64,000 bases of DNA, from assembly GCF_037042905.1 (NCBI RefSeq), contig NC_087251.1, positions 1,426,001 through 1,490,000 of the forward strand, in the 5' to 3' direction. The notes beneath the pieces were generated by a model, which saw only the letters and a program-made list of their open reading frames with translations, was not told where the DNA came from and did no database searches. This document shows positions 1,774 to 54,288 of this stretch, piece after piece (the stretch's first letter is position 1; every line of letters starts with the position of its first letter). The position numbers and the translations under genes are program-made. This DNA is from Lytechinus pictus. Its lineage: Eukaryota.

Positions 1774-3616
1774 TGTTGCACCACAAAATGTCGACCCTGC
1801 ACAATATTTGCGAATTTTGACACCACAAATTGTCACCCCTGCACAAATTGTCGCCTTATTTAGGCGACAATTTGTGGAGGAGGGGACACCACAAATTGTC
1901 ACCCCATTTCACTTAACACAACAAACAAAACAGGTCATGTAGGGTTGCAAATGCAATTAGACCATTTGGTTATTAGACGAATTGGTCATTAGACCAAATG
2001 AGAATTAGACCAAGTATATATTGGACCAAATTATTAGTAGACCAAATCGGTTAAGCCCATGTGTTATTAGACAAACGGAGAATTAGTACAATTGTTGTTA
2101 GACCTAGTGATTAAAATCCGAATTTTCCACGGGCTCTGCTGCTGTTCTTTCCTTAAGGTCAATTGCCAGTTGGTCTAAACCTGATTTAGCCTCATCCTAT
2201 ACATGGCCTAATTCCATTTCATCTACAACCAGTTTATTTTTTGGTCTAATTGTCATTTTGCCAATTTACAATTCCGTTTAATTTCCATTTGGTCTAAATT
2301 TTATTTGGTCTAATATCAAATTGGTCTAACCACCAAATGGTCAATTCCTGTAACAGACTGAAAATATTCATTTGTAAATTAGTAAAATCCGTAGGTTTCT
2401 TTACCAGAATACAGCCCATCGTCTTATTCATGCTTTTGTCACATCTCGCTTAGATAATTGTAATTTCCTTCTCTTTGGACTTTCTACAAAAATGACCTCA
2501 AAGCTCCAGCGCATCCAAAACATCGCGGCTCGTCTTGTTTCCAGTGTCCCTCGTTCTTCCCACATTACTCCTGTGCTTTGCAAACTCCACTGGCTTCCTA
2601 TTACTTCTCGTATCATCTACAAAATTCTTCTTCTTGCTTTCAAGTCATATCATGGTCTAGCTCCTTCATACTTTTCTGAACTCCTTCCTTGATATCAGGC
2701 AGTTCGAGTTCTACGTTCTGCTTCTCAATCTCTTCTTTCTCGATCTCATATTTCTTACAAACAATACGGTCAACGTTTATTCTCTTATACAGCTTCATTT
2801 CTTTGGAACAATCTCCCCCTACAAATTCGCAATGCTGACTGTGTTAATACATTTAAAGTTATGCTTAAAACTTATCTTTTTAAATCTTAAATTGATCATT
2901 ATGTTTGTTGGCCCATTTGATGGTATTTATTTATTCATGATCTGGTGAGAAAAAGTTGTAAATTGTAATATTAGTTTTGATACATTTTGTTGTGCAAAGT
3001 ATTTATATTTCCTTTATACTTCATATTTCCTTTCTCTTAATCGCTTAGAGGCAATTTGCGAATTTGCGGTATATAAAATTGTTATTATTATTATTATATA
3101 TTTGGGATTTAGACGAAAAGGCGATTATACCGACCAATTATATTCGACCAAGTCCTATACATTAGACCAAACTGTTACTAGAGCAAATAAGTTTAGCTTG
3201 CATGGTATTACACGATTAAAGTTTGACCAACTGCTACTGCTAGACCAAGTGGATATAATCCCCCCCCCCCAAAAAAAAAAAAAAAAAAAAACTAATAATA
3301 ATAAAAAATGATAATAATACACACATACACACACGCACATCCCCCACACACACACTACACACTAGACTTGTGGTTGAAGACTATTTGTGTAATGGAAAAA
3401 GAGCTCTGAACAAGCGCAGCTGAATATATCCATATAAAAGCTGCGCTATACAAATTAATGTTTAATACTACTATGGGCAACAATTTGTGGTTCTATATAG
3501 GTTTCTGTTTGCCGACACAAATTGGCACAATATGCTTAAAAATTGAGACCGGCACGTGCAACACAAATTGTCGTGAGGCGACAATTTGTGCAGGGATGAT
3601 AATTTGTGGTGAAACA
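1774..3616. mobile_element. Non-autonomous DNA transposon with TGT...ACA ends and 5-bp TSD (Ginger-like), containing the L2 insertion
   Basis: Imperfect ~31-bp TIRs tgttgcaccacaaaatgtcgaccctgcacaa / ttgtgcagggatgataatttgtggtgaaaca. taggc is duplicated at 1769-1773 and 3617-3621. Subterminal cacaaattgtc repeats occur at both ends. Confidence 0.7.
2375..3098 (+). mobile_element. L2-clade LINE 3' fragment (ORF2 C-terminus, 3' UTR, (tta)n tail)
   Basis: One frame reads KIRRFL..LIHAFVTSRLDNCN..KLQRIQNIAARLV..HITPVLCKLHWLPI..YKILLL, then one in-frame TGA (2690-2692), then LWNNLP..FKVMLKTYLF* (2890). Tail is cgcttagag...gcggtatataaa...ttattattatt. Confidence 0.9.
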
Positions 3617-21116: not shown

Positions 21117-24100
21117 ATTAGGTGGTCTGTCTATGACAGATCACCTATTGATTTCGCTAGAATTTTCTTTCTTTATTTATTCTTTATTCTTTATTTATTA
21201 GGTGGTCTGTCAACGACAGATCACCTATTGATTTCGCCAGAATTTTCTTTCTTTATTATTCTTTATTAGGTGGTCTGTCAACGACAGATCACCTATTGAT
21301 TTCGCCAGAATTTTCTTTCTTTATTATTCTTTATTCTTTATTAGGTGGTCTGTCAACGACAGATCACCTATTGATTTCGCCAGAATTTTCTTTCTTTATT
21401 TATTTATTTATTTATTTATTTTTATTTCTTCCGTACACTTTTTTGTACACACGTTCACTCGAAATCGACATGGTCAATTTCCTTCAAATTTCTGTCAGTC
21501 ATCAAGCCGTATGATTTCAAGTAAAATCAACTTTTTCAAGGTCATCAGGTCATGATGACGTCATCCAGGCGCCATTTTGTAAAATCACATTGTCGATCAT
21601 ATCTCCATTATCAATTATCAAAAATCGATCAAATTAACATCACATCAACTTCAGGTCAAGGGTCAACAGGTCATGTCATCAAAGGTCACCTGGAGGTCAC
21701 GACGCGCGCGTACGCGCTCGTCAAATTTTTAAAATGCTCAAAATCACTTTTTGACCAAAGTAAAGTACGTTTCAGGTCATTTTAAGCATTTCAAAAATTT
21801 GCGCACGCACAGGTATGCGCGCGCGTTTCCGCGCGTAACGCCTTCAAAACAACGCAGAAACGCCGTTTTTTTTATATCGTTGCATTGATAATATAATTCT
21901 GAGCAATTTGATACCTTGATCAACCTTCTACGACCATTAATAACGAAATTAACACCCGTTAAACTTTGCAGCACGTGTGCGCGCGAGCTCTTACTATAGG
22001 CCATATACGGGCAAAAACATGCCTATTAAAAATTCACTGTAGCTCTTTAAATAGTCCGTTGACCCCCAATTTTTTTTCATATATCGATAGAGTATGAGTT
22101 GTAAATTTGATTTCATGTCACCATTGTCCCTCAATTTGATCATGACGTCATCAAAATTGCGCCTAAACTGAAAATTTCATTTTTTCAAAAATGACGTCAT
22201 CAAATTTATGCAAATTTGATCATAACTCCATGAATATTGATCATTTGTCGCCCAGATTCCGATATGTTGTAGTTTAGAATGTACTCTTTCTCGTCAGTTT
22301 ACATGAATTTTCATTTTGAAAAACGCATCATGGTGTAAAATTGCGATGAAAAGAGGCATGTCATTTTTCCTCATTTTACGTGTAATCTCTATGGGACATG
22401 ACTTTTTCTCAAAACTAGATTCTACATTCCTCTATTTCGTGAGCTATATCTCCATTTTTTCTTGTTAGTTATCCCTGAGCTTTTGGTATGATGTAGCTGA
22501 GATTCTAAGCTTTCGGAAGTGTGCCCTCCATTTTTCGATCAGATGTCAGGATCATGCCCGTTTTTCGCTTGCAAAATTGGATTTGTAATTCTCAAATTTG
22601 CTTGCGTGTAATCTCTATGGGAACGTGTAATCTCTATGGGGAATATCGTGGCTCAATGGATAACGCACTTGACTTGAGTTCTCGGGGGCACAGGTTCGAG
22701 TCCTGGGGGTGAACAAGATGATTTTTTTCCATTTTTTTTTTTTTTTACCACCTCGTACATGATCCTTTATGATAATTAAAAGGTATGAAAGTTAAAATTT
22801 AGCAAGATTAAACAGATTATAATTACTTTTTTCAAATCACATGTATTTTCATATATCAAAGAGACCCTTTTCACAGTGCTTTATCATCTCCCGTCTTTCA
22901 CAAGTATTCCATCCATAATGAGCATTCCGTTGTCATCATGAAGATCATATTGATCTGTTTGAACATGGTAATAGTGATCATGATGGCGAGAATAAGGACA
23001 GACCACCTAATTCGTCCGCATGACGAATTAAAATCTAGTTTATTTTTATTTCTTCCGTACACTTTTTTGTACACACGTTCATTCGAAATTGACATGATCA
23101 ATTTCCTTCAAATTTCTGTCAGTCATCAAGCCATATGATTTCTAGTAAAATTAACTTTTTCAAGGTCATTAGGTCATCGTGACGTCATCCAGGCGCCATT
23201 TTGTAAAAATCAGGTCATTATCATATCTCGATAACGAGTGATCAAAAATCAACTATATTTGGTATACATCAACTTCAGGTCAACGGTCAACTAAAAATTT
23301 CATCAAATTCCGCGCGCGCACCTCGACGCGCACGTACGCGCGCATTAAAATTTTAAAATGCTCAAATTCGTTCCAAATTAATTTTCCATACGTTTTAGGC
23401 CATTTTAAGCATTTTGCAAAAAAACGCGCGCACGCACATGCGCGCGCGTTTTTGCGCGTAATTGCATCTTTCAACATAGAATCGCCAATTTTTTTTATAT
23501 CAATGCACCGATAATATAATTCTGAACAATTTGATACCTTGATCAACCTTCTACGACAAGTAATAACGAAATTATCACCCGTTATACTTTGCAGCACGTG
23601 TGCGCGCGAGCTCTCACTACAGGCCATATATGGGCAAAAACATGTCTATTGAAAATTCACTGTAGCTCTTTAAATAGTCCGTTGACCCCAATTTTTCTTT
23701 CATATATCGATAGAGTATGAGTTGTAGATTTGATTTCATGTCACCATTGTCCCTCAATTTGATCATGACGTCATCAAAATTGCGCCTAAACTGAAAATTT
23801 CATTTTTTCAAAAATGACGTCATCAAATTTATGCAAATTTGATCATAACTCCGTAAATATTGATCATTTGTCGCCCAGATTTCAATATGTTGTAGGTTAG
23901 AATGTACTCTTTCTCGTCAGTTAACATAAATTTTCATTTTGAAAAACGCATCATGGTGTAAAATTGCGATGAAAAGAGGCATGTCATTTTTCCTCATTTT
24001 ACGTGTAATCTCTATGGGACATGACTTTTTCTCAAAACTAGATTCTACATTCCTCTATTTCGTGAGCTATATCTCCATTTTTTCTTGTTAGTTATCCCTG

Positions 24101-27100
24101 AGCTTTTGGTATGATGTAGCTGAGATTCTAAGCTTTCGGAAGTGTGCCCTCCATTTTTCGATCAGATGTCAGGATCATGCCCGTTTTTCGCTTGCAAAAT
24201 TGGATTTGTAATTCTCAAATTTGCTTACGTGTAATCTCTATGGGAACGTGTAATCTCTATGGGGAATATCGTGGCTCAATGGATAACGCACTTGCCTTGA
24301 GTTCTCGGGGGCGCAGGTTCGAGTCCTGGGGGTGAACAAGATGATTTTTTTTTCCATTTTTTTTTTCTTTTTACCACCTCGTACATGATCCGTTATGATA
24401 ATTAAAAGGTATGAAAGTTAAAATTTAGCAAGATTTAACAGATTATAATAACTTTTTTCATATCACTTGTATGTTCATATATCAAAGAGACCCTTTTCAC
24501 AGTGCTTTATCATCTCCCGTCTTTTACAAGTATTCCATCCATAATGAACATTCCGTTGTCATCATGAAGATCATATTGATCTGCTTGAACATGGTAATAG
24601 TGATCATGATGGCGAGAATAAGGACAGACCACCTAATTCGTCCGCATGACGAATTAAAATCTAGTTTATTTTTATTTCTTCCGTACACTTTTTTGTACAC
24701 ACGTTCATTCGAAATTGACATGATCAATTTCCTTCAAATTTCTGTCAGTCATCAAGCCATATGATTTCTAGTAAAATTAACTTTTTCAAGGTCATTAGGT
24801 CATCGTGACGTCATCCAGGCGCCATTTTGTAAAAATCAGGTCATTATCATATCTCGATAACGAGTCATCAAAAATCAACTATATTTGGTATACATCAACT
24901 TCAGGTCAACGGTCAACTAAAAATTTCATCAAATTCCGCGCACGCACCTCGACGCGCACGTACGCGCGCATTAAAATTTTAAAATGCTCAAATTCGTTCC
25001 AAATTAATTTTCCATACGTTTCAGACCATTTTAAGCATTTTGCAAAAAAACGCGCGCACGCACATGCGCGCGCGTTTTTGCGCGTAATTGCATCTTTCAA
25101 CATAGAATCGCCAATTTTTTTTATATCAATGCACCGATAATATAATTCTGAACAATTTGATACCTTGATCAACCTTCTACGACAAGTAATAACGAAATTA
25201 TCACCCGTTATACTTTGCAGCACGTGTGCGCGCGAGCTCTCACTACAGGCCATATATGGGCAAAAACATGTCTATTGAAAATTCACTGTAGCTCTTTAAA
25301 TAGTCCGTTGACCCCCAATTTTTTTTCATATATCAATAGAGTATGAGTTGTAGATTTAATTTCATGTCACCATTGTCCCTCAATTTGATCATGACGTCAT
25401 CAAAATTGCGCCTAAATTGAAAATTTCATTTTTTCAAAAATGACGTCATCAAATTTATGCAAATTTGATCATAACTCCGTGAATATTTATCGTTTTTCGC
25501 CCAGATTTCGATATGTTGTAGTTTAGAATGTACCCTTTCTCGTCAGTTGACATGAATTTTCATTTTGAAAAATGCATCATTGTGTAAAATTGCAATGAAA
25601 AGAGGCATGTCATTTTTCCTCATTTTACGTGTAATCTCTATGGGACATGACTTTTTCTCAAAACTAGATTCTACATTCCTCTATTTCGTGAGCTGTATCT
25701 CCATTTTTTCTTGTTAGTTATCCCTGAGCTTTTGGTATGATGTAGCTGAGATTCTAAGCTTTCGGAAGTGTGCCCTCCTTTTTTCAAGGTCATTAGGTCA
25801 TTGTGACGTCATCCAGGCGCCATTATGTAAAAATCAGGTCATTATCATATCTCGATAACGAGTCATCAAAAATCAACTATATTTGGTATACATCAACTTC
25901 AGGTCAACAGTCAACTACAAAATTCATCAAATTCCGCGCGCGCACCTCGACGCGCACGTACGCGCGCATTAAAATTTTAAAATGCTCAAATTCGTTCCAA
26001 ATTAATTTTCCATACGTTTTAGGCCATTTCAAGCATTTTGCAAAAAAACGCGCGCACGCACATGCGCGCGCGTTTTCGCGCGTAATTGCATCTTCCAACA
26101 TAGAATCGCCAATTTTTTTATATCAATGCACCGATAATATAATTCTGAACAATTTGATACCTTGATCAACCTTCTACGACAAGTAATAACGAAATTAACA
26201 CCCGTTAAAGTTTGCAGCACGTGTGCGTGCGAGCTCTCACTACAGGCCATATATGGGCAAAAACATGTCTATTGAAAATTCACTGTAGCTCTTTAAATAG
26301 TCCGTTGACCCCAATTTTTTTTTTCATATATCGATAGAGTATGAGTTGTAGATTTGATTTCATGTCACCATTGTCCCTCAATTTGATCATGACGTCATCA
26401 AAATTGCGCCTAAACTGAAAATTTCATTTTTTCAAAAATGACGTCATCAAATTTATGCAAATTTGATCATAACTCCGTGAATATTGATCATTTTTTGCCC
26501 AAATTTCGATATGTTGTGGTTTAGAATGTACTCTTTCTCATAAATAGGCATGGCTTTTCATTTTGAAAAACGCATCATGGTGTAAAATTGCGATGAAAAG
26601 AGGCATGTCATTTTTCCTCATTTTACGTGTAATCTCTATGGGACATGACTTTTTCTCAAAACTAGATTCTACATTCCTCTATTTCGTTAGCTATATCTCC
26701 ATTTTTTCTTGCTAGTTTTCCCCGAGCTTTTGGTATGATGTAGCTGAGATTCTAAGCTTTTGGAAGTATGCCCTCCATTTTTCGATCAGATGCCAGGATC
26801 ATGCCCGTTTTTCGCTTGCAAAATTGGATTTGTAATTCTCAAAGTTGCTTACGTGTAATCTCTATGGGAACGTGTAATCTCTATGGGGAATATCGTGGCT
26901 CAGTGGATAACGCACTTGACTTGAGTTCTCGGGGGCGCAGGTTCGAGTCCTGGGGGTGAACAAGATAATTTTTTTTTTTCATTTTTATTTTCTTTTTACC
27001 ACCTCGTACATGATCCATTATGATAAGTAAAAGGTATGAAAGTTAAAATTTAGCAAGATTAAACAGATTATAATTACTTTTTTCATATCACATGTATTTT

Positions 27101-30100
27101 CATATATCAAAGAGACCCTTTTCACAGTGCTTTATCATCTCCCGTCTTTCACAAGTATTCCATCAATAATGAACATTCCGTTGTCATCATGAAGATCATA
27201 TTGATCTGCTTGAACATGGTAATAGTGATCATGATGGCGAGAATAAGGACAGACCACCTAATTCGTCCGCATGACGAATTAAAATCTAGTTTATTTTTAT
27301 TTCTTCCGTACACTTTTTTGTACACACGTTCACTCGAAATCGACATGGTCAATTTCCTTCAAATTTCTGTCAGTCATCAAGCCCTATGATTTCAAGTTAA
27401 ATCAACTTTTTCAAGGTCATTAGGTCATCGTGACGTCATCCAGGCGCCATTTTGTAAAAATCAGGTCATTATCATATCTCGATAACGAGTCATCAAAAAT
27501 CAACTATATTTGGTATACATCAATTTCAGGTCAACGGTCAACGAAAAATTTCATCAAATTCCGCGCGCGCACCTCGACGCGCACGTACGCGCGCATTAAA
27601 ATTTTAAAATGCTCAAATTCGTTCCAAATTAATTTTCCATACGTTTCAGGCCATTTTAAGCATTTTGCAAAAAAACGCGCGCACGCACATGCGCGCGCGT
27701 TTTCGCGCGTAATTGCATCTTCCAACATAGAATCGCCAAATTTTTTCTGTCATCATATTTGGCACATTTTTTCAAGCATTTTGATACCTTGATCAACCTT
27801 CTACGACAAGTAATAACGAAATTATCACCCGTTAAACTTTGCAGCACGTGTGCGCGCGAGCTCTCACTACAGGCCATATATGGGCAAAAACATGTCTATT
27901 GAAAATTCACTCTAGCTCTTTAAATAGTCCGTTGACCCCCATTTTTTTTTCATATATCGATAGAGTATGAGTTGTAGATATGATATCATGTCACCATTGT
28001 CCCTCAATTTGATCATGACGTCATCAAAATTGCGCCTAAACTGAAAATTTCATTTTTTCAAAAATGACGTCATCAAATTTATGCAAATTTGATCATAACT
28101 CCGTGAATATTGATCATTTTTCGCCCAGATTTCGATATGTTGTAGTTTAGAATGTACTCTTTTTCGTCAGTTTTCATGAATTTTCATTTTGAAAAACGCA
28201 TCATGGTGTAAAATTGCGATGAAAAGAGGCATGTCATTTTTCCTCATTTTACGTGTAATCTCTATGGGACATGACTTTTTCTCAAAACTAGATTCTACAT
28301 TCCTCTATTTCGTGAGCTATATCTCCATTTTTTCTTGTTAGTTATCCCTGAGCTTTTGGTATGATGTAGCTGAGATTCTAAGCTTTCGGAAGTGTGCCCT
28401 CCATTTTTCGATCAGATGCCAGGATCATGCCCGTTTTTCGCTTGCAAAATTGGATTTGTAATTCTCAAATTTGCTTACGTGTAATCTCTATGGGAACGTG
28501 TAATCTCTATGGGGAATATCGTGGCTCAATGGATAACGCACTTGACTTGAGTTCTCGGGGGCGCAGGTTCGAGTCCTGGGGGTGAACAAGATGATTTTTT
28601 TTTTCATTAGGTGGTCTGTCGATGACAGATCACCTATTGATTTCGCCAGAATTTTCTTTCTTTATTTATTAGGTGGTCTGTCAACGACAGATCACCTATT
28701 GATTTCGCTAGAATTTTCTTTCTTTATTTCTTTATTTATTTTTATTTCTTCCGTACACTTTTTTGTACACACGTTCACTCAAAATCGACATGGTCAATTT
28801 CCTTCAAATTTCTGTCAGTCATCAAGCCCTATGATTTCAAGTAAAATCAACTTTTTCAAGGTCATCAGGTCATGATGACGTCATCCAGGCGCCATTTTGT
28901 AAAATCACATTGTCGATCATATCTCCATTATCAATTATCAAAAATCAATCAAATGAACATCACATCAACTTCAGGTCAAGGGTCAACAGGTCATGTCATC
29001 AAAGGTCACCTGGAGGTCACGACGCGCGCGTACGCGCTCGTCAAATTTTTAAAATGCTCAAAATCACTTTTTGACCAAAGTAAAGTACGTTTCAGGTCAT
29101 TTTAAGCATTTCAAAAATTTGCGCACGCACACGTATGCGCACGCGTTTCCGCGCGTAACGCCTTCAACGCAACGCAGAAACGCCGTTTCTTTTATATCAT
29201 TGCATTGATAATATAATTCTGAGCAATTTGATACCTTGATCAACCTTCTACGACCATTAATAACGAAATTAACACCCGTTAAAGTTTGCAGCACGTGTGC
29301 GCGCGAGCTCTTACTATAGGCCATATATGGGCAAAAACATGCCTATTAAAAATTCACTGTAGCTCTTTAAATAGTCCGTTGACCCCCAATTTTTTTTCAT
29401 ATATCGATAGAGTATGAGTTGTAGATTTGATTTCATGTCACCATTGTCCCTCAATTTGATCATGACGTCATCAAAATTGCGCCTAAACTGAAAATTTCAT
29501 TTTTTTAAAAATGACGTCATCAAATTTATGCAAATTTAATCATAACTCCGTGAATATTGATCATTTTTCGCCCAGATTTCGATATGTTGTAGTTAAGAAT
29601 GTACTCTTTCTCGTCAGTTAACCTAAATTTTCATTTTGAAAAACGCATCATGGTGTAAAATTGCGATGAAAAGAGGCATGTCATTTTTCCTCATTTTACG
29701 TGTAATCTCTATGGGACATGACTTTTTCTCAAAACTAGATTCTACATTCCTCTATTTCGTGAGCTATATCTCCATTTTTCCGTGTTAGTTATCCCTGAGC
29801 TTTTGGTATGATGTAGCTGAGATTCTAAGCTTTCGGAAATGTGCCCTCCATTTTTCGATCAGATGACAGAATCATGCCCGTTTTTCGCTTGCAAAATTGG
29901 ATTTGTAATTCTCAAATTTGCTTACGTGTAATCTCTATGGGAACGTGTAATCTCTATGGGGAATATCGTGGCTCAATGGATAACGCACTTGACTTGAGTT
30001 CTCGGGGGCGCAGGTTCGAGTCCTGGGGGTGAACAAGATGATTTTTTCTTCTTTTTTTTCCCCTTTTACCACCTCGTACATGATAATTAAAAGGTATGAA

Positions 30101-31993
30101 AGTTAAAATTTAGCAAGATTAAACAGATTATAATTACTTTTTTCATATCACATGTATTTTCATATATCAAAGAGACCCTTTTCACAGTGCTTTATCATCT
30201 CCCGTCTTTCACAAGTATTCCATCCATAATGAACATTCCGTTGTCATCATGAAGATCATATTGATCTGCTTGAACATGGTAATAGTGATCATGATGGCGA
30301 GAATAAGGACAGACCACCTAATTCGTCCGCATGACGAATTAAAATCTAGTTTATTTTTATTCTTTATTTATTTTTATTTCTTCCGTACACTTTTTTGTAC
30401 ACACGTTCATTCGAAATTGACATGATCAATTTCCTTCAAATTTCTGTCAGTCATCAAGCCATATGATTTCTAGTAAAATTAACTTTTTTAAGGTCATTAG
30501 GTCATCGTGACGTCATCCAGGCGCCATTTTGTAAAATCACATTGTCGATCATATCTCCATTATCAATTATCAAAAATCAATCAAATTAACATCACATCAA
30601 CTTCAGGTCAAAAGTCAACAAGTCATGTCATCAAAGGTCACCTGGAGGTCACGACGCGCGCGTACGCGCTCGTCAAATTTTTTAAATGCTCAAAATCACT
30701 TTTTGACCAAAGTAAAGTACGTTTCAGGTCAATTCAAGCATTTCAAAAATTTGCGCGCGCACACGTATGCGCGCGCGTTTCCGCGCGTAACGCCTTCAAC
30801 GCAACGCAGAAACGCAGTTTTTTTTATATCATTGCATTTATAATATAATTCTGAACAATTTGATACCTTGATCAACCTTCTACGACAAGTAATAACGAAA
30901 TTATCACCCGTTAAACTTTGCAGCACGTGTGCGCGCGAGCTCTCACTACAGGCCATATATGGGCAAAAACATGTCTATTGAAAATTCACTGTAGCTCTTT
31001 AAAATGTCCGTTGACCCCAATTTTTTTTTCATATATCGATAGAGTATAAGTTGTAGATTTGATTTCATGTCACCATTGTCCCTCAATTTGATCATGACGT
31101 CATCAAAATTGCGCCTAAACTGAAAATTTCATTTTTTCAAAAATGACGTCATCAAATTTATGCAAATTTGATCATAACTCCGTGAATATTGATCATTTAT
31201 CGCCCAGATTTCGATAAGTTGTAGTTTAGAATGCACTCTTTCTCGTCAATTTACATGAATTTTCATTTTGAAAAACGCATCATGGTGTAAAATTGCGATG
31301 AAAAGAGGCATGTCATTTTTCCTCATTTTACGTGTAATCTCTATGGGACATGACTTTTTCTCAAAACTAGATTCTACATTCCTCTATTTCGTGAGCTATA
31401 TCTCCATTTTTTCTTGTTAGTTATCCCTGAGCTTTTGGTATGATGTAGCTGAGATTCTAAGCTTTCGGAAGTGTGCCCTCCATTTTTCGATCAGATGTCA
31501 GGATCATGCCCGTTTTTCGCTTGCAAAATTGGATTTGTAATTCTCAAATTTGCTTACGTGTAATCTCTATGGGAACGTGTAATCTCTTTGGGGAATATCG
31601 TGGCTCAATGGATAACGCACTTGACTTGAGTTCTCGGGGGCGCAGGTTCGAGTCCTGGGGGTGAACAAGATGATTTTTTTTTTCATTTTTTTTTTCTTTT
31701 TACCACCTCGTACATGATCCTTTATGATAATTAAAAGGTATGAAAGTTAAAATTTAGCAAGATTAAACAGATTATAATAACTTTTTTCATATCACATGTA
31801 TTTTCATATATCAAAGAGACCCTTTTCACAGTGCTTTATCATCTCCCGTCTTTCACAAGTATTCCATCCATAATGAACATTCCGTTGTCATCATGAAGAT
31901 CATATTGATCTGCTTGAACATGGTAATAGTGATCATGATGGCGAGAATAAGGACAGACCACCTAATTCGTCCGCATGACGAATTAAAATCTAG
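21117..31993 (+). mobile_element. Cluster of a ~1.7-kb non-autonomous Helentron/Helitron2-like (DINE-1/HINE-type) element: 6 heads, 7 body segments, 5 intact 3' ends
   Basis: The 5' subTIR attaggtggtctgtc has an adjacent partial inverted copy (gacagatcacctatt) and is followed by a T-rich (ttta/ttct) microsatellite. The 3' subTIR gacagaccacctaat is the exact reverse complement. It is followed by a 9-bp-stem hairpin taattcgtc-cgcat-gacgaatta and then aaatCTAG (23035, 24661, 27286, 30346, 31990). No credible ORF. Confidence 0.8.
22642..22728 (+). pseudogene. tRNA-derived (tRNA-Arg-like) Pol III cassette inside the clustered element; further copies near 24265, 26889, 28515, 29962, 31594
   Basis: A box tggctcaatgg (22649-22659), B box ggttcgagtcc (22693-22703), T-run at 22722. 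D and T arms resemble eukaryotic tRNA-Arg; acceptor and anticodon stems do not pair. Confidence 0.7.
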
Positions 31994-32440
31994 TTTTATC
32001 TTTCTTTTTGCTTTATCTTTGTTCCCTGTATGTACTTTAAACTGGTTTTAAGTTGTCATTTTGTATTTTTGGTGGTACTATTTAAAAGAATATATATATA
32101 ATAGGAGGCTGCACGCTACAAGTTGGTGACAAACGAAATGAAATTCATTTTCTGTGTTTTTAAATCCGTCGTCTGTTGTGGAAGCAAACAAAATCCCTAG
32201 TTAATCAAGCATCACGGACGAATATCATTATCTCCTTTGCGTCACTGACCATTGGGTGTTTTATAAATCTGGGTGTCAATAGAGAGTCTGGGAATTAGTG
32301 GAATTATAGAAAATGAAATAGTTTTCTCGAGCATTGTTTATTAGATACCAATAAAAACACGGATATTTTAACAAATTTCATATCATTAATGAATATTAAT
32401 GAATGAATGGTATGAATGAAAATTCATACCATTAATGAAA

Positions 32441-32630
32441 GGAGGCTGCAACCTACAAGCTCCGCTTTTTAGCAGCCTCCTCCATTTCCAACCTGCTATT
32501 ATGATAATCGTAACTATAATTTTTGCACATAAAAATATGCTATGTTTCATTGCTTATAAAGTTCTGTATTATAATTATTATTGTACGAAGAAAAATGTAA
32601 TTGTTGGAAATGGAAATGAATGAAATGAAT
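32441..32630 (+). mobile_element. LINE 3' UTR remnant
   Basis: Stem ggaggctgc/gcagcctcc enclosing tacaagc-tcc-gctttt, followed by a (gaaat/gaat)n tail. A partial copy of the stem start lies at 32104-32122. Confidence 0.6.
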
Positions 32631-33428
32631 ATAAAATGCGGTCTATGATATTTTCTACTTAAAGTTATATGAAATAATAACAAAAAGTGATACTTTATTA
32701 AATTGCTTGAAGAGACTTTGGGTTCGCATTGGTGATCGATATTTCGATTGTTCTTGAAAAAAAAGTTTTATCAACTAGCATAACCGTACCCAAGAAAGTA
32801 AAAATGTATTGAAATAATTGACTCATGATTACTGCTATATGGTTATATCTGCTATGTCAGGCAATAGATTGCTTTTACTTCGTATATCCGACCTAAACAT
32901 TTTTTTTCGATGACACTGAAAAACAGCCATACGTTAAACTAATACTACTCATGAAATCAAATCAGGAACATATTAAAGAGATAGATCAATAACAAGTAAA
33001 AGGGTAGTTATTTCACCTGACATGAGCCTGGCTGTATAGACAAGAAAAAGACAACAAAGAAGGACTGCTATTCGGTATAAACCTTTGTAATTGTCTAGGC
33101 ACGTACCGCTCGATATAAAGTTTCGGATTCAAGATTTATCGTCCATCGTGTGTGATACATAATGGAAATCTATATCGTTCGCACATTATCAATAAAAGCA
33201 TTAATTCTAAAGATATTCATTAAACATGAAAGAGATTACTATCTGAAGGTTATCAAAAATTAATTGAGTCACATTGATATAAATTGGATTATGGCTCTCA
33301 AGCTTCACCATAGGACCATCACATTAAGTATCAAAATCAAACGTCTCAAACAAACGAAGAAGATTCAGAACTAGAAAATTTTATTATAAAGTCACCATAA
33401 TCCTAGTTCAGGATAGAATCATCGGATA

Positions 33429-34728: not shown

Positions 34729-36024
34729 CAAGTAGAAGATTGAGTTGCCTGTGTTGATTAACTGTTTGTGCAAGTATACTGAGTAGAATTTGTTGATTAA
34801 CTGTTTGTGCAAGTAGAACATTGAGTAGCCTGTGTTGATTAACTGTTTGTGCAAGTAGAAAATTGAGTAGCCTTTGTTTATTAACTGTTTGTGCAAGTAG
34901 AACATTGAGTAGCCTTTGTTTATTAACTGTTTGTGCAAGTAGAACATTGAGTAGCCTGTGTTGATTAACTGTTTGTGCAAGTAGAAAATTGAGTAGCCTT
35001 TGTTGTTTAACTATTTGTGCAAGTAGAAAATTGAGTAGCCTTTGTTGATTAACTGTTTGTGAAGTAGAAAAATGAGTAGCCTTTGTTGATTAACTGTTTG
35101 TGCAAGTAGAAAATTGAGTAGCCTTTAATGATTAACTGTTTGTGCAAGTAGAACATTGAGTAGCCTGTGTTGATTAACTGTTTGTGCAAGTAGAAAATTG
35201 AGTAGCCTTTGTTTATTAACTGTTTGTGCAAGTAGAACATTGAGTAGCCTTTGTTTATTAACTGTTTGTGCAAGTAGAACATTGAGTAGCCTGTGTTGAT
35301 TAACTGTTTGTGCAAGTAGAAAATTGAGTAGCCCTTGTTGTTTAACTGTTTGTGTCTTAGTAGAAAATTGAGTAGCCTTTGTTGATTAACTGTTTGTGAA
35401 GTAGAAAAATGAGTAGCCTTTGTTGATTAACTGTTTGTGCAAGTAGAAAATTGAGTAGCCTTTAATGATTAACTGTTTGTGCAAGTAGAATATTGAGTAG
35501 CCTTTTTTTGATTAACTGTTTGTGCAAGTAGAAAATTGAGTAGCCTTTGTTGAAAACTGTTTGTGCAAGTAGAAAATTGAGTAGCCTTTAATGATTAACT
35601 GTTTGTGCAAGTAGAACATTGAGTAGCCTTTGTTGATTAAATGTTTGTGCAAGTAGAATATTGAGTAGCCTTTGTTGATTAACTGTTTGTGCAAGTACAA
35701 AATTGAGTAGCCTTTGTTGATTAACTGTTTGTGCAAGTAGAACATTGAGTAGCCTTTTGTCATTTCCGTCTTTTCAGTGTGAATTTTCACCTCTGTTGGA
35801 GTGAAAGTGAAAAAAAAAAAGCACACTCTCACTCCTAAAAAGGTGAAAATTCACTCTTAAAAAAGACCAAAATCTCACTTCATCAGGACTGGTACCTCAT
35901 CTCACTCTGAGAGAAGCGTGGTTAGGGACTAGATTAGATCCTTTGCATTTACAGAGTAGCCTTTGATGATTGAATGTTTGTGAAAGTTGAACATTGGGTA
36001 GCCTATGTTGATTTACTGTTTGTG
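34729..36024. repeat. 42-bp minisatellite (~24 copies to 35760, then a ~190-bp interruption and ~1.7 degenerate copies)
   Basis: Consensus caagtagaaaattgagtagcctttgttgattaactgtttgtg. Confidence 0.97.
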
Positions 36025-53837: not shown

Positions 53838-54288
53838 ATTGCCAATTCGTTCACTGCCAACTTGTCCACTCGCCACATGGTCTACCTTCATTTAGTCTAA
53901 TGCCATTCCGTCCATCAACTTTCGTCTAACAACCATTTGGTCCAATTATCACTTCGTCTATCATCAGTTCGTTCACGACCATCTCGTCTCACAATCAGAT
54001 GGTCTAATATTCGTTTTATTTGCATTCATTTTGCCCAATTAACACTTGATTGATTGATTGCATTACAATGTAAGGCAAAACACAAGAATATAATATACTT
54101 AGTCTAATTAGACCAAGCGGTATATGGACTCAATGGTTATTAGACCAACTGGTTATTAGACGAAATAGTGTGTGGAAGAAATGGCAATTAGACCATATGG
54201 GTATTGGACGAACTGATGGTAGACCAAATGATAATAGACGAGTTGGCAATTGGACGAATTGGCATTGGACCAAATGAAAACCAAAACC
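53838..54288. mobile_element. Same MITE family (copy 2), with a 49-bp insertion
   Basis: Shares atggtctaccttcatttagtc, ttcgtctaacaaccatttggtcc, gacgaactgatggtagacc and aattggacgaattggcat with copy 1. Confidence 0.75.

Follow-up and report, generated by a model that had tools for sequence, protein, structure and literature searches.

Composite Helitrons with multiple 5' termini have been described in Fusarium oxysporum, where FoHeli elements insert into themselves near the 5' end (PMC5148889). Non-autonomous Helentrons of the HINE/DINE-1 type are recognised by subterminal inverted repeats of 11–15 nt, the 3' copy lying tens of bases from the end (PMC4067079, PMC7492417). Among autonomous elements, DUF6570 marks the HLE2 class, and Herpes_teg_N and Exo_endo_phos are enriched in HLE2 subgroup b, the Helentrons (PMC11417382). 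The accessible parts of two further papers hold only general statements on nested insertion (PMC13085455, PMC12628747), and those of the DTC84 paper have no mention of 'nested' or 'inserted' (PMC3879986). Here we analyse a 64,000-nt window of the Lytechinus pictus genome (contig NC_087251.1, 1,426,001–1,490,000, designated G000:C7:1426001-1490000, in an 812-Mb genome), in which a 10.9-kb stretch (21118–31993) is a stack of six copies of a small rolling-circle transposon. Very probably, this non-autonomous Helentron has inserted repeatedly into its own spacer, and the resulting nests have then served as donors. The case is carried by the structure of the nest, the anatomy and target motif of the family, the recurrence of the arrangement, the non-local origin of its bodies, the mobility of chimeric units, and a moderate last-in-first-out (LIFO) signal in the pairing of heads with bodies.

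The unit is a 1.7-kb non-autonomous Helentron of the HINE/DINE-1 type, made up of a head beginning TTAGG, a T-rich (TTTA)n spacer, a body and a tail with a CTAG terminus. Its subterminal inverted repeats match exactly over 14 nt, with the 3' copy ending 28 nt before the CTAG end. The 5' hairpin has a 13-bp stem and a 3-nt loop (z −4.59), and the 3' hairpin a 9-bp stem and a 5-nt loop (z −2.8 and −3.1). The microsatellite behind the 5' end varies among 36 intact copies. No frame exceeds 122 aa within 21118–31993, which implies no transposase coding capacity. Assignment to the canonical Helitron1 class (HLE1), which has a 5' TC start and lacks subterminal inverted repeats, was rejected on the TTAGG start and the inverted repeats, although the hairpin and CTAG terminus of the window element are nonetheless Helitron1-like.

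The nest contains six heads, six body starts and five tails (Table 1). As the first-pass annotation had described, four heads precede four bodies, and two further heads precede two bodies; each head begins one base later than that annotation placed it, the base noted being the preceding A. Its observation that internal CTAG ends join the second half of the spacer also holds, since 4/4 internal tails are followed by a right half-spacer and a body, and 0/4 by a head. This right half measures 16 nt in three cases and 33 nt in one; in the coordinates of a reference copy (21340–23038), bodies after the 16-nt half start at position 76 (n = 3) and the body after the 33-nt half at position 60 (n = 1). 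In exact cases, rejoined half-spacers restore intact spacers without added bases. The nest as a whole sits in a pyrimidine-rich tract with no visible target-site duplication. Rolling-circle concatemers or end-bypass alone would place heads directly behind tails, and 122 such tail-to-head junctions do occur genome-wide, some of them inside nests. However, none of the four internal tails of the window is of this kind, the window bodies differ by 2–12% where identical bodies would be expected, and a concatemer cannot make head-head or tail-half-spacer junctions. We therefore reject it as the sole process and give it next to no weight.

Two bodies of the nest are irregular, and both irregularities proved to be mobile. 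At 25780–25785 a real junction leads from reference position 1197 back to 193, which had been read as one extra partial body. Instead, this long body, in which 1 kb is duplicated internally, represents a 2.6-kb variant; over 2,613 columns it is 96% identical to a lone copy that stands in flanks of its own (L044, G000:C2:41.10 Mb), and a local partial body was rejected on this ground. The first-pass annotation had also remarked on a body lacking its tail. The cut is real, lying in the fourth body at reference position 1389 (28601), but it is no local accident: the same junction, from the poly-T run to the following head, stands at 11 loci on 9 contigs, and a genome pattern search for a tail followed by the missing remainder found none. 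Local deletion of the fourth tail was rejected on the same evidence. Because the body-head junction recurs and the tail with remainder does not, we take H1-B4(cut)-H5-B6-tail, the outermost unit, to be a mobile chimera that hosts four nested copies.

Table 1. Features of the nest and of the surrounding window (window coordinates; H, head; B, body; T, tail)
Feature	Span	Strand	Head start	Body start	CTAG tail	Remarks
Whole nest	21118..31993	+				Order H1 H2 H3 H4 B1 T B2 T B3(long) T B4(cut) H5 H6 B5 T B6 T
Head 1 and left half of own spacer	21118..21197	+	21118			Outermost; LIFO partner B4
Head 2 and left half-spacer	21198..21265	+	21198			LIFO partner long body B3
Head 3 and left half-spacer	21266..21340	+	21266			LIFO partner B2
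Innermost intact element, 1,698 bp	21341..23038	+	21341	21431	23038	Head 4, spacer, B1, tail; 5' subterminal repeat with hairpin 21341–21370; (TTTA)n 21387–21421; intact spacer to 21430; 3' subterminal repeat from 22997, then 3' hairpin and CTAG end
Right half-spacer (16 nt), B2, tail	23039..24664	+		23055	24664	
Right half-spacer, long body B3, tail	24665..27289	+		24681	27289	1-kb internal duplication, junction 25780–25785
Right half-spacer, B4	27290..28606	+		27306		Cut at poly-T run (reference 1389); remaining ~310 bp absent
Head 5 and short left half-spacer	28607..28668	+	28607			Loop type common to the element with the open frame (see text); LIFO partner B6
Intact element H6-B5-tail	28669..30349	+	28669	28751	30349	Nested in spacer of head 5
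Long right half-spacer (33 nt), B6, final tail	30350..31993	+		30383	31993	
Dispersed repeat, ~200 bp	32440..32640					Right flank; at least 40 relatives at 76–93%
Tandem array, 42-bp unit	34729..35757					24.6 copies, 91% matches
Degenerate 16-bp tandem repeats	1956..2329; 54107..54270					One kind in two distant places
Open frame, 448 aa	43536..44882	+				By eye, presumably a reverse transcriptase fragment of a long interspersed nuclear element
Open frame, 641 aa	60281..62206	-				By eye like a large host exon of a membrane protein

The same arrangement recurs across the genome. Counts were made with exact-match patterns and are lower bounds (at L050 and L051 there are heads that the pattern missed), and junction loci were taken from the first 100 places of each pattern. 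Reversed control patterns gave 0 matches in 812 Mb in every search, so the junction patterns are not due to chance. The patterns found 600 heads and 909 tails, the latter including sister families, together with 218 head-head junctions and 150 tail-spacer-body junctions (138 in the main subfamily and 12 in a second one). Lone copies have the predicted head-spacer-body-tail anatomy at 5/7 single-head loci, the other two running past the fetched end, and at five further loci (L044–L048). Balanced nests were found at C2:66.30 Mb (5 heads/5 tails), C14:25.39 Mb (4/4) and C5:46.16 Mb (2/2), while the nest at C11:4.36 Mb has 8 heads and 5 tails. Clusters were assembled on C1–C9 from the listed junctions (100/218 head-head and 65/138 tail-body) at a joining distance of 45 kb, chosen by us; omitting five clusters of the second subfamily and one incompletely listed cluster reduced 37 to 31. 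In the 20 clusters with a split body, head and body counts are correlated (rho 0.90), being equal in 11 (permutation p 0.0006) and within one of each other in 17.

The proposal of n heads followed by n bodies thus describes a tendency, not a rule. It holds in the 11/20 split-body clusters with equal counts and fails elsewhere, the genome having more head-head than tail-spacer-body junctions. Copies with several heads and a single tail stand at unrelated sites, each ending in its own flank (L030, 5/1; L032, 3/1; L055 and L057, 2/1). The most satisfactory explanation of the unequal counts is that nests were re-mobilised, copying running from an outer head to an early tail, and, since composites are mobile as well, nests are probably not assembled solely in place. 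Tandem arrays, plain as well as tail-less, occur in the family too; units of a head and a shortened body with no tail, at a period of 1,277–1,280 bp, are arrayed at G000:C2:2201363-2239702 (L027), C1:24.68 Mb, C2:10.76 Mb and C2:33.54 Mb. The C2:2.2 Mb array, with at least 31 heads among the matches listed and nearly identical neighbours (1 mismatch in 700), is a true local amplification inside a larger nest.

The bodies of a nest are not local duplicates of one another. Those of the window are 88–98% alike over 1,100 bp, and all six have their closest relative on another contig (98.5–99.7%), contrary to what pure local duplication would predict. The innermost element has a 99% identical copy at G000:C11:4358047, and B6 a 99.7% identical intact copy at C14:25.39 Mb. 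Neighbouring units at 91 head-head junctions in 27 fetched loci are identical in only 2/91, giving 89 distinct outer-inner pairs, a count that spacer slippage after copying could inflate. Window head 1, with its letter-identical half-spacer, pairs with 98–99% identical bodies at different depths in the C11:4.36 Mb and C2:66.30 Mb nests. In the largest test of pairing order, the LIFO head of each split body was compared with the head of the nearest body elsewhere, against 3,000 within-stack shuffles; with parts of four further nests added, the set comprised 31 split and 31 intact bodies, of which 11–24 entered, depending on the threshold. Summed distances gave p 0.15, 0.016 (19 bodies) and 0.020 with the library of intact bodies, and p 0.015, 0.004 (21 bodies) and 0.007 with all bodies. 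The suggested LIFO order therefore beats shuffled pairing in 5/6 settings (p 0.004–0.02), and the reversed order is worse than the shuffle mean in 6/6. The signal is moderate: the p values are not fully independent, as nests may share ancestry, and multi-head units closed by one tail, which we noticed post hoc, would shift the LIFO count.

These data bear on two further explanations. Heads might be a slippage minisatellite and bodies a local tandem duplication, their numbers matching by coincidence. The genome-wide excess of heads (218 vs 150), the copies with 3–5 heads and one tail, and the near-identical 1,277-bp arrays would all suit such a view, which is nevertheless largely refuted, and in our judgement very unlikely, given the correlated counts, the non-local bodies, the reverse order in which haplotypes pair and the rarity of identical adjacent heads. 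Misassembly is a known hazard of 1.7-kb repeats, but the bodies carry distinct haplotypes, the right flank of the nest is single-copy apart from the 200-bp repeat in a genome search, and nests built on the same grammar stand between flanks of their own at more than 20 loci, which makes an assembly artefact extremely improbable. The idea that each copy inserted into the spacer of an earlier one thus draws support from lone-copy anatomy, balanced nests, count correlation, cross-contig bodies and haplotype pairing.

Target choice was examined in unrelated genomic flanks, where T occupies position −3 in 31/31 left flanks and positions +1 and +2 in 20/21 right flanks each, and the first 16 bases are 62% T against a background of 33%. 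Insertion by the family is strand-specific, leaves no duplication and takes place at T-N-N^T-T ahead of T-rich DNA. In a matrix built from these flanks only, the site lying 16 bases ahead of the body takes first or second place in 30–32 of the 32 intact spacers, whichever of three settings is used; the site 12 bases before the body wins in one of the three, and the poly-T run near position 1390 is also among the element's best sites, all of which are on the + strand. Right halves at 100 listed junctions are of 16 nt in 92, of 12 nt in 5 and longer in 3, so that predicted and observed use agree on the 16- and 12-base spacer sites. That the element carries its own preferred target, as had been proposed, is borne out by this ranking. 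The end of each copy also recreates a target, as seen from insertions behind tails: in L085 a sister-family element lies exactly behind the CTAG end (a CTAG^T junction) inside a nest, and in L047 a copy lies four bases behind the worn tail of an older relative. Half-megabase clusters at G000:C10:0.01-0.47 Mb, C12:7.8-8.3 Mb and C16:19.85-20.06 Mb, with many tail-to-head junctions and long open Rep frames, give the impression of sister-family copies heaped up by insertion behind one another's ends.

The motif does not account for the frequency of nesting. By extrapolation from 52–54 sites in 53 kb, some 0.8 million genomic sites score as well as the one or two thousand in spacers, so that about 0.1–0.2% of insertions would be expected in spacers, whereas 150/909 tails (16%) abut a half-spacer. 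Crudely, from a small matrix, self-insertion exceeds motif expectation by about 100-fold, part of which is accounted for by the copying of composites. Copies land in each other far beyond motif expectation, and an extra bias is therefore needed. One candidate, which we advance tentatively and at somewhat below an even chance, is a true self-targeting pathway, in which the transposase would be drawn to resident heads beyond the T-rich motif and insert at one spacer base, placing about one copy in six inside another. The main rival for this step is homing-like gene conversion, in which only a few self-insertions occurred and the nested state was spread by recombinational repair, a nicked intact spacer taking over the inner element of a copy that was nested before. 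It would likewise lead to LIFO order and to right halves that are fixed beside left halves that vary; the right half shared by 92 of the listed junctions, the mosaic of subfamily segments in the bodies, and the need for some homology-dependent step behind the excess all speak for it. Conversely, the sites used are those predicted from unrelated flanks, 89/91 outer-inner pairs are unique, and other right halves exist (12, 33 and 34 nt in 8/100 listed junctions of the main subfamily; six different ones among 12 in the second). These varied right halves, together with the sister-family insertion in L085, weigh against conversion as the sole route, and we consider it unlikely.

Repeated self-insertion very probably proceeds as follows. 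The activity that mobilises the unit in trans would come from the Rep-helicase-endonuclease of an autonomous partner whose ends are the same. The best targets within the unit are the spacer sites 16 and 12 bases before the body and the poly-T run near position 1390. A copy entering a spacer splits its host into a head with the left half and a body with the right half, so that only the innermost copy keeps an intact spacer and repetition yields stacked heads followed by bodies in reverse order, as structure and haplotypes show. The most likely source of the bias would be transposase bound at a resident head, drawing incoming copies to a target 60–80 bases away. Nests may then act as donors, with copying that begins at an outer head and runs to the first tail or one further on, as proposed for FoHeli (PMC5148889); such copying from an outer head to an early tail would yield both the multi-head single-tail copies and the tail-less fourth body. 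The head excess of 218 to 150 points to a start at the head and a leaky stop at the tail.

A candidate partner was found in a genome search for Rep, which gave 35 Helitron_like_N matches. As 21/35 lie in open frames of more than 3,000 codons, the autonomous copies appear young and are possibly active. At G000:C14:10.007 Mb, the same heads and a 5' body 74% alike (first 1.4 kb) precede an intact frame of 3,525 codons with Herpes_teg_N, DUF6570, Helitron_like_N, PIF1 and Exo_endo_phos domains. There, four stacked heads and a cut non-autonomous body precede the element with this frame (L062 1-1800). Judged from sequence, this element is likely the partner of the non-autonomous unit; its status falls short of proof because its own 3' end was not found in the 26 kb read.

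Several observations weigh against repeated self-insertion followed by re-mobilisation. The missing 3' end of the candidate partner is one, family tails lying 36–48 kb further on. Over all 31 clusters, head and body counts correlate only weakly (rho 0.36, p 0.047), because 11/31 have stacked heads without a split body; 1/31 shows the reverse, and a locus at G000:C2:70.13 Mb has 2 heads and 3 tails. The 16 bases shared by 92/100 listed tail-body junctions would also result from the copying of one junction. A rarer subfamily is found nested chiefly within itself (L032, L041, L061), a hint of routes that are local or recombinational. Two preceding tests of LIFO order, both of them smaller, gave weak results (product of ranks 0.03–0.10; p 0.11–0.27), the strictest setting of the largest one reached only the p of 0.15 given above, and several LIFO pairs match poorly (distances 10–41). 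A search with the right flank, aimed at another haplotype or a paralogue, returned only the window itself and the 200-bp repeat, with no empty allele.

If self-targeting is true, nests preserve the order of transposition events, and alongside the intact autonomous partners of this genome they offer an assay system for Helentron target choice and for the start and stop of copying. In the accessible parts of the cited papers, target choice and start/stop polarity of Helentrons (HLE2) have been deduced rather than measured, and this family gives countable evidence on both: a single-base internal target, stacks from which the relative ages of subfamilies can be read, and a surplus of heads, which points to copying that begins at the head and stops leakily at the tail. 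The family also illustrates how a dispersed transposon can give rise to satellite-like arrays through nesting, not through concatemers. Repeat annotation will split such loci into a minisatellite and a tandem array. A self-made landing pad would, in addition, limit damage to host genes.

Nesting within a family is also familiar from MITEs and from Alu elements, which insert in each other's A-rich tails. As here, the element is short and contains a favourable target for its own transposase; the chemistry differs, and no ordered stack of heads results.

The closest structural relatives of the unit are the HINE/DINE-1 elements, including the oyster Cg_HINE, with which it shares a 5' subterminal repeat with a short inverted repeat, a microsatellite, a 3' subterminal repeat, a 3' stem-loop, the lack of a coding frame, and a T-rich target without duplication (PMC4067079, PMC7492417). 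It differs in that the microsatellite itself is the favoured target and in that the window element has no central tandem array; stacks of heads followed by bodies are not described in the accessible text of either paper. The candidate partner resembles HLE2 subgroup b in combining DUF6570, Herpes_teg_N and Exo_endo_phos with Rep and PIF1 (PMC11417382), an assignment made from the domain set, not from a tree; unlike in that subgroup, its frame runs antisense to the head-to-tail direction.

In literature searches judged by titles and the openings of abstracts, with most subscription papers outside their reach, no paper was listed that describes ordered n-head/n-body HINE nests with a single-base internal target, a negative further limited by Supplementary Table S6 and Figure S11 of PMC5148889, which may show deeper stacks. 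Nested maize Helitrons have been regarded as intermediates for elements with several 5' or 3' ends (PMC3288121); those have canonical Helitron1 ends and mostly extra 3' ends with degenerate CTAG, and no fixed internal target is reported in the accessible text. FoHeli elements come nearest, with self-insertion close to the 5' end and 31–85 nt repeated there, mobile multi-head elements that arise when copying runs between the leftmost 5' end and the first 3' end, and reversed frame orientation in some subgroups (PMC5148889). Mobile elements of the FoHeli kind, which combine several 5' ends with a single 3' end and lie at unrelated sites, are present here too, as is a body-to-head junction at 11 loci with no remainder. 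In Fusarium, self-insertion was deduced from multi-5' copies and one nested case (PMC5148889), whereas here dozens of loci show full intermediates, of up to five heads and then five bodies, next to their products, accompanied by haplotype order and a target base that is defined. Helitron self-insertion giving stacked 5' ends is thus already known, and a re-mobilisation model has been published for Fusarium and maize; what the L. pictus family adds is one favoured spacer base and, by rough estimate, a 100-fold excess of self-insertion over the target motif.

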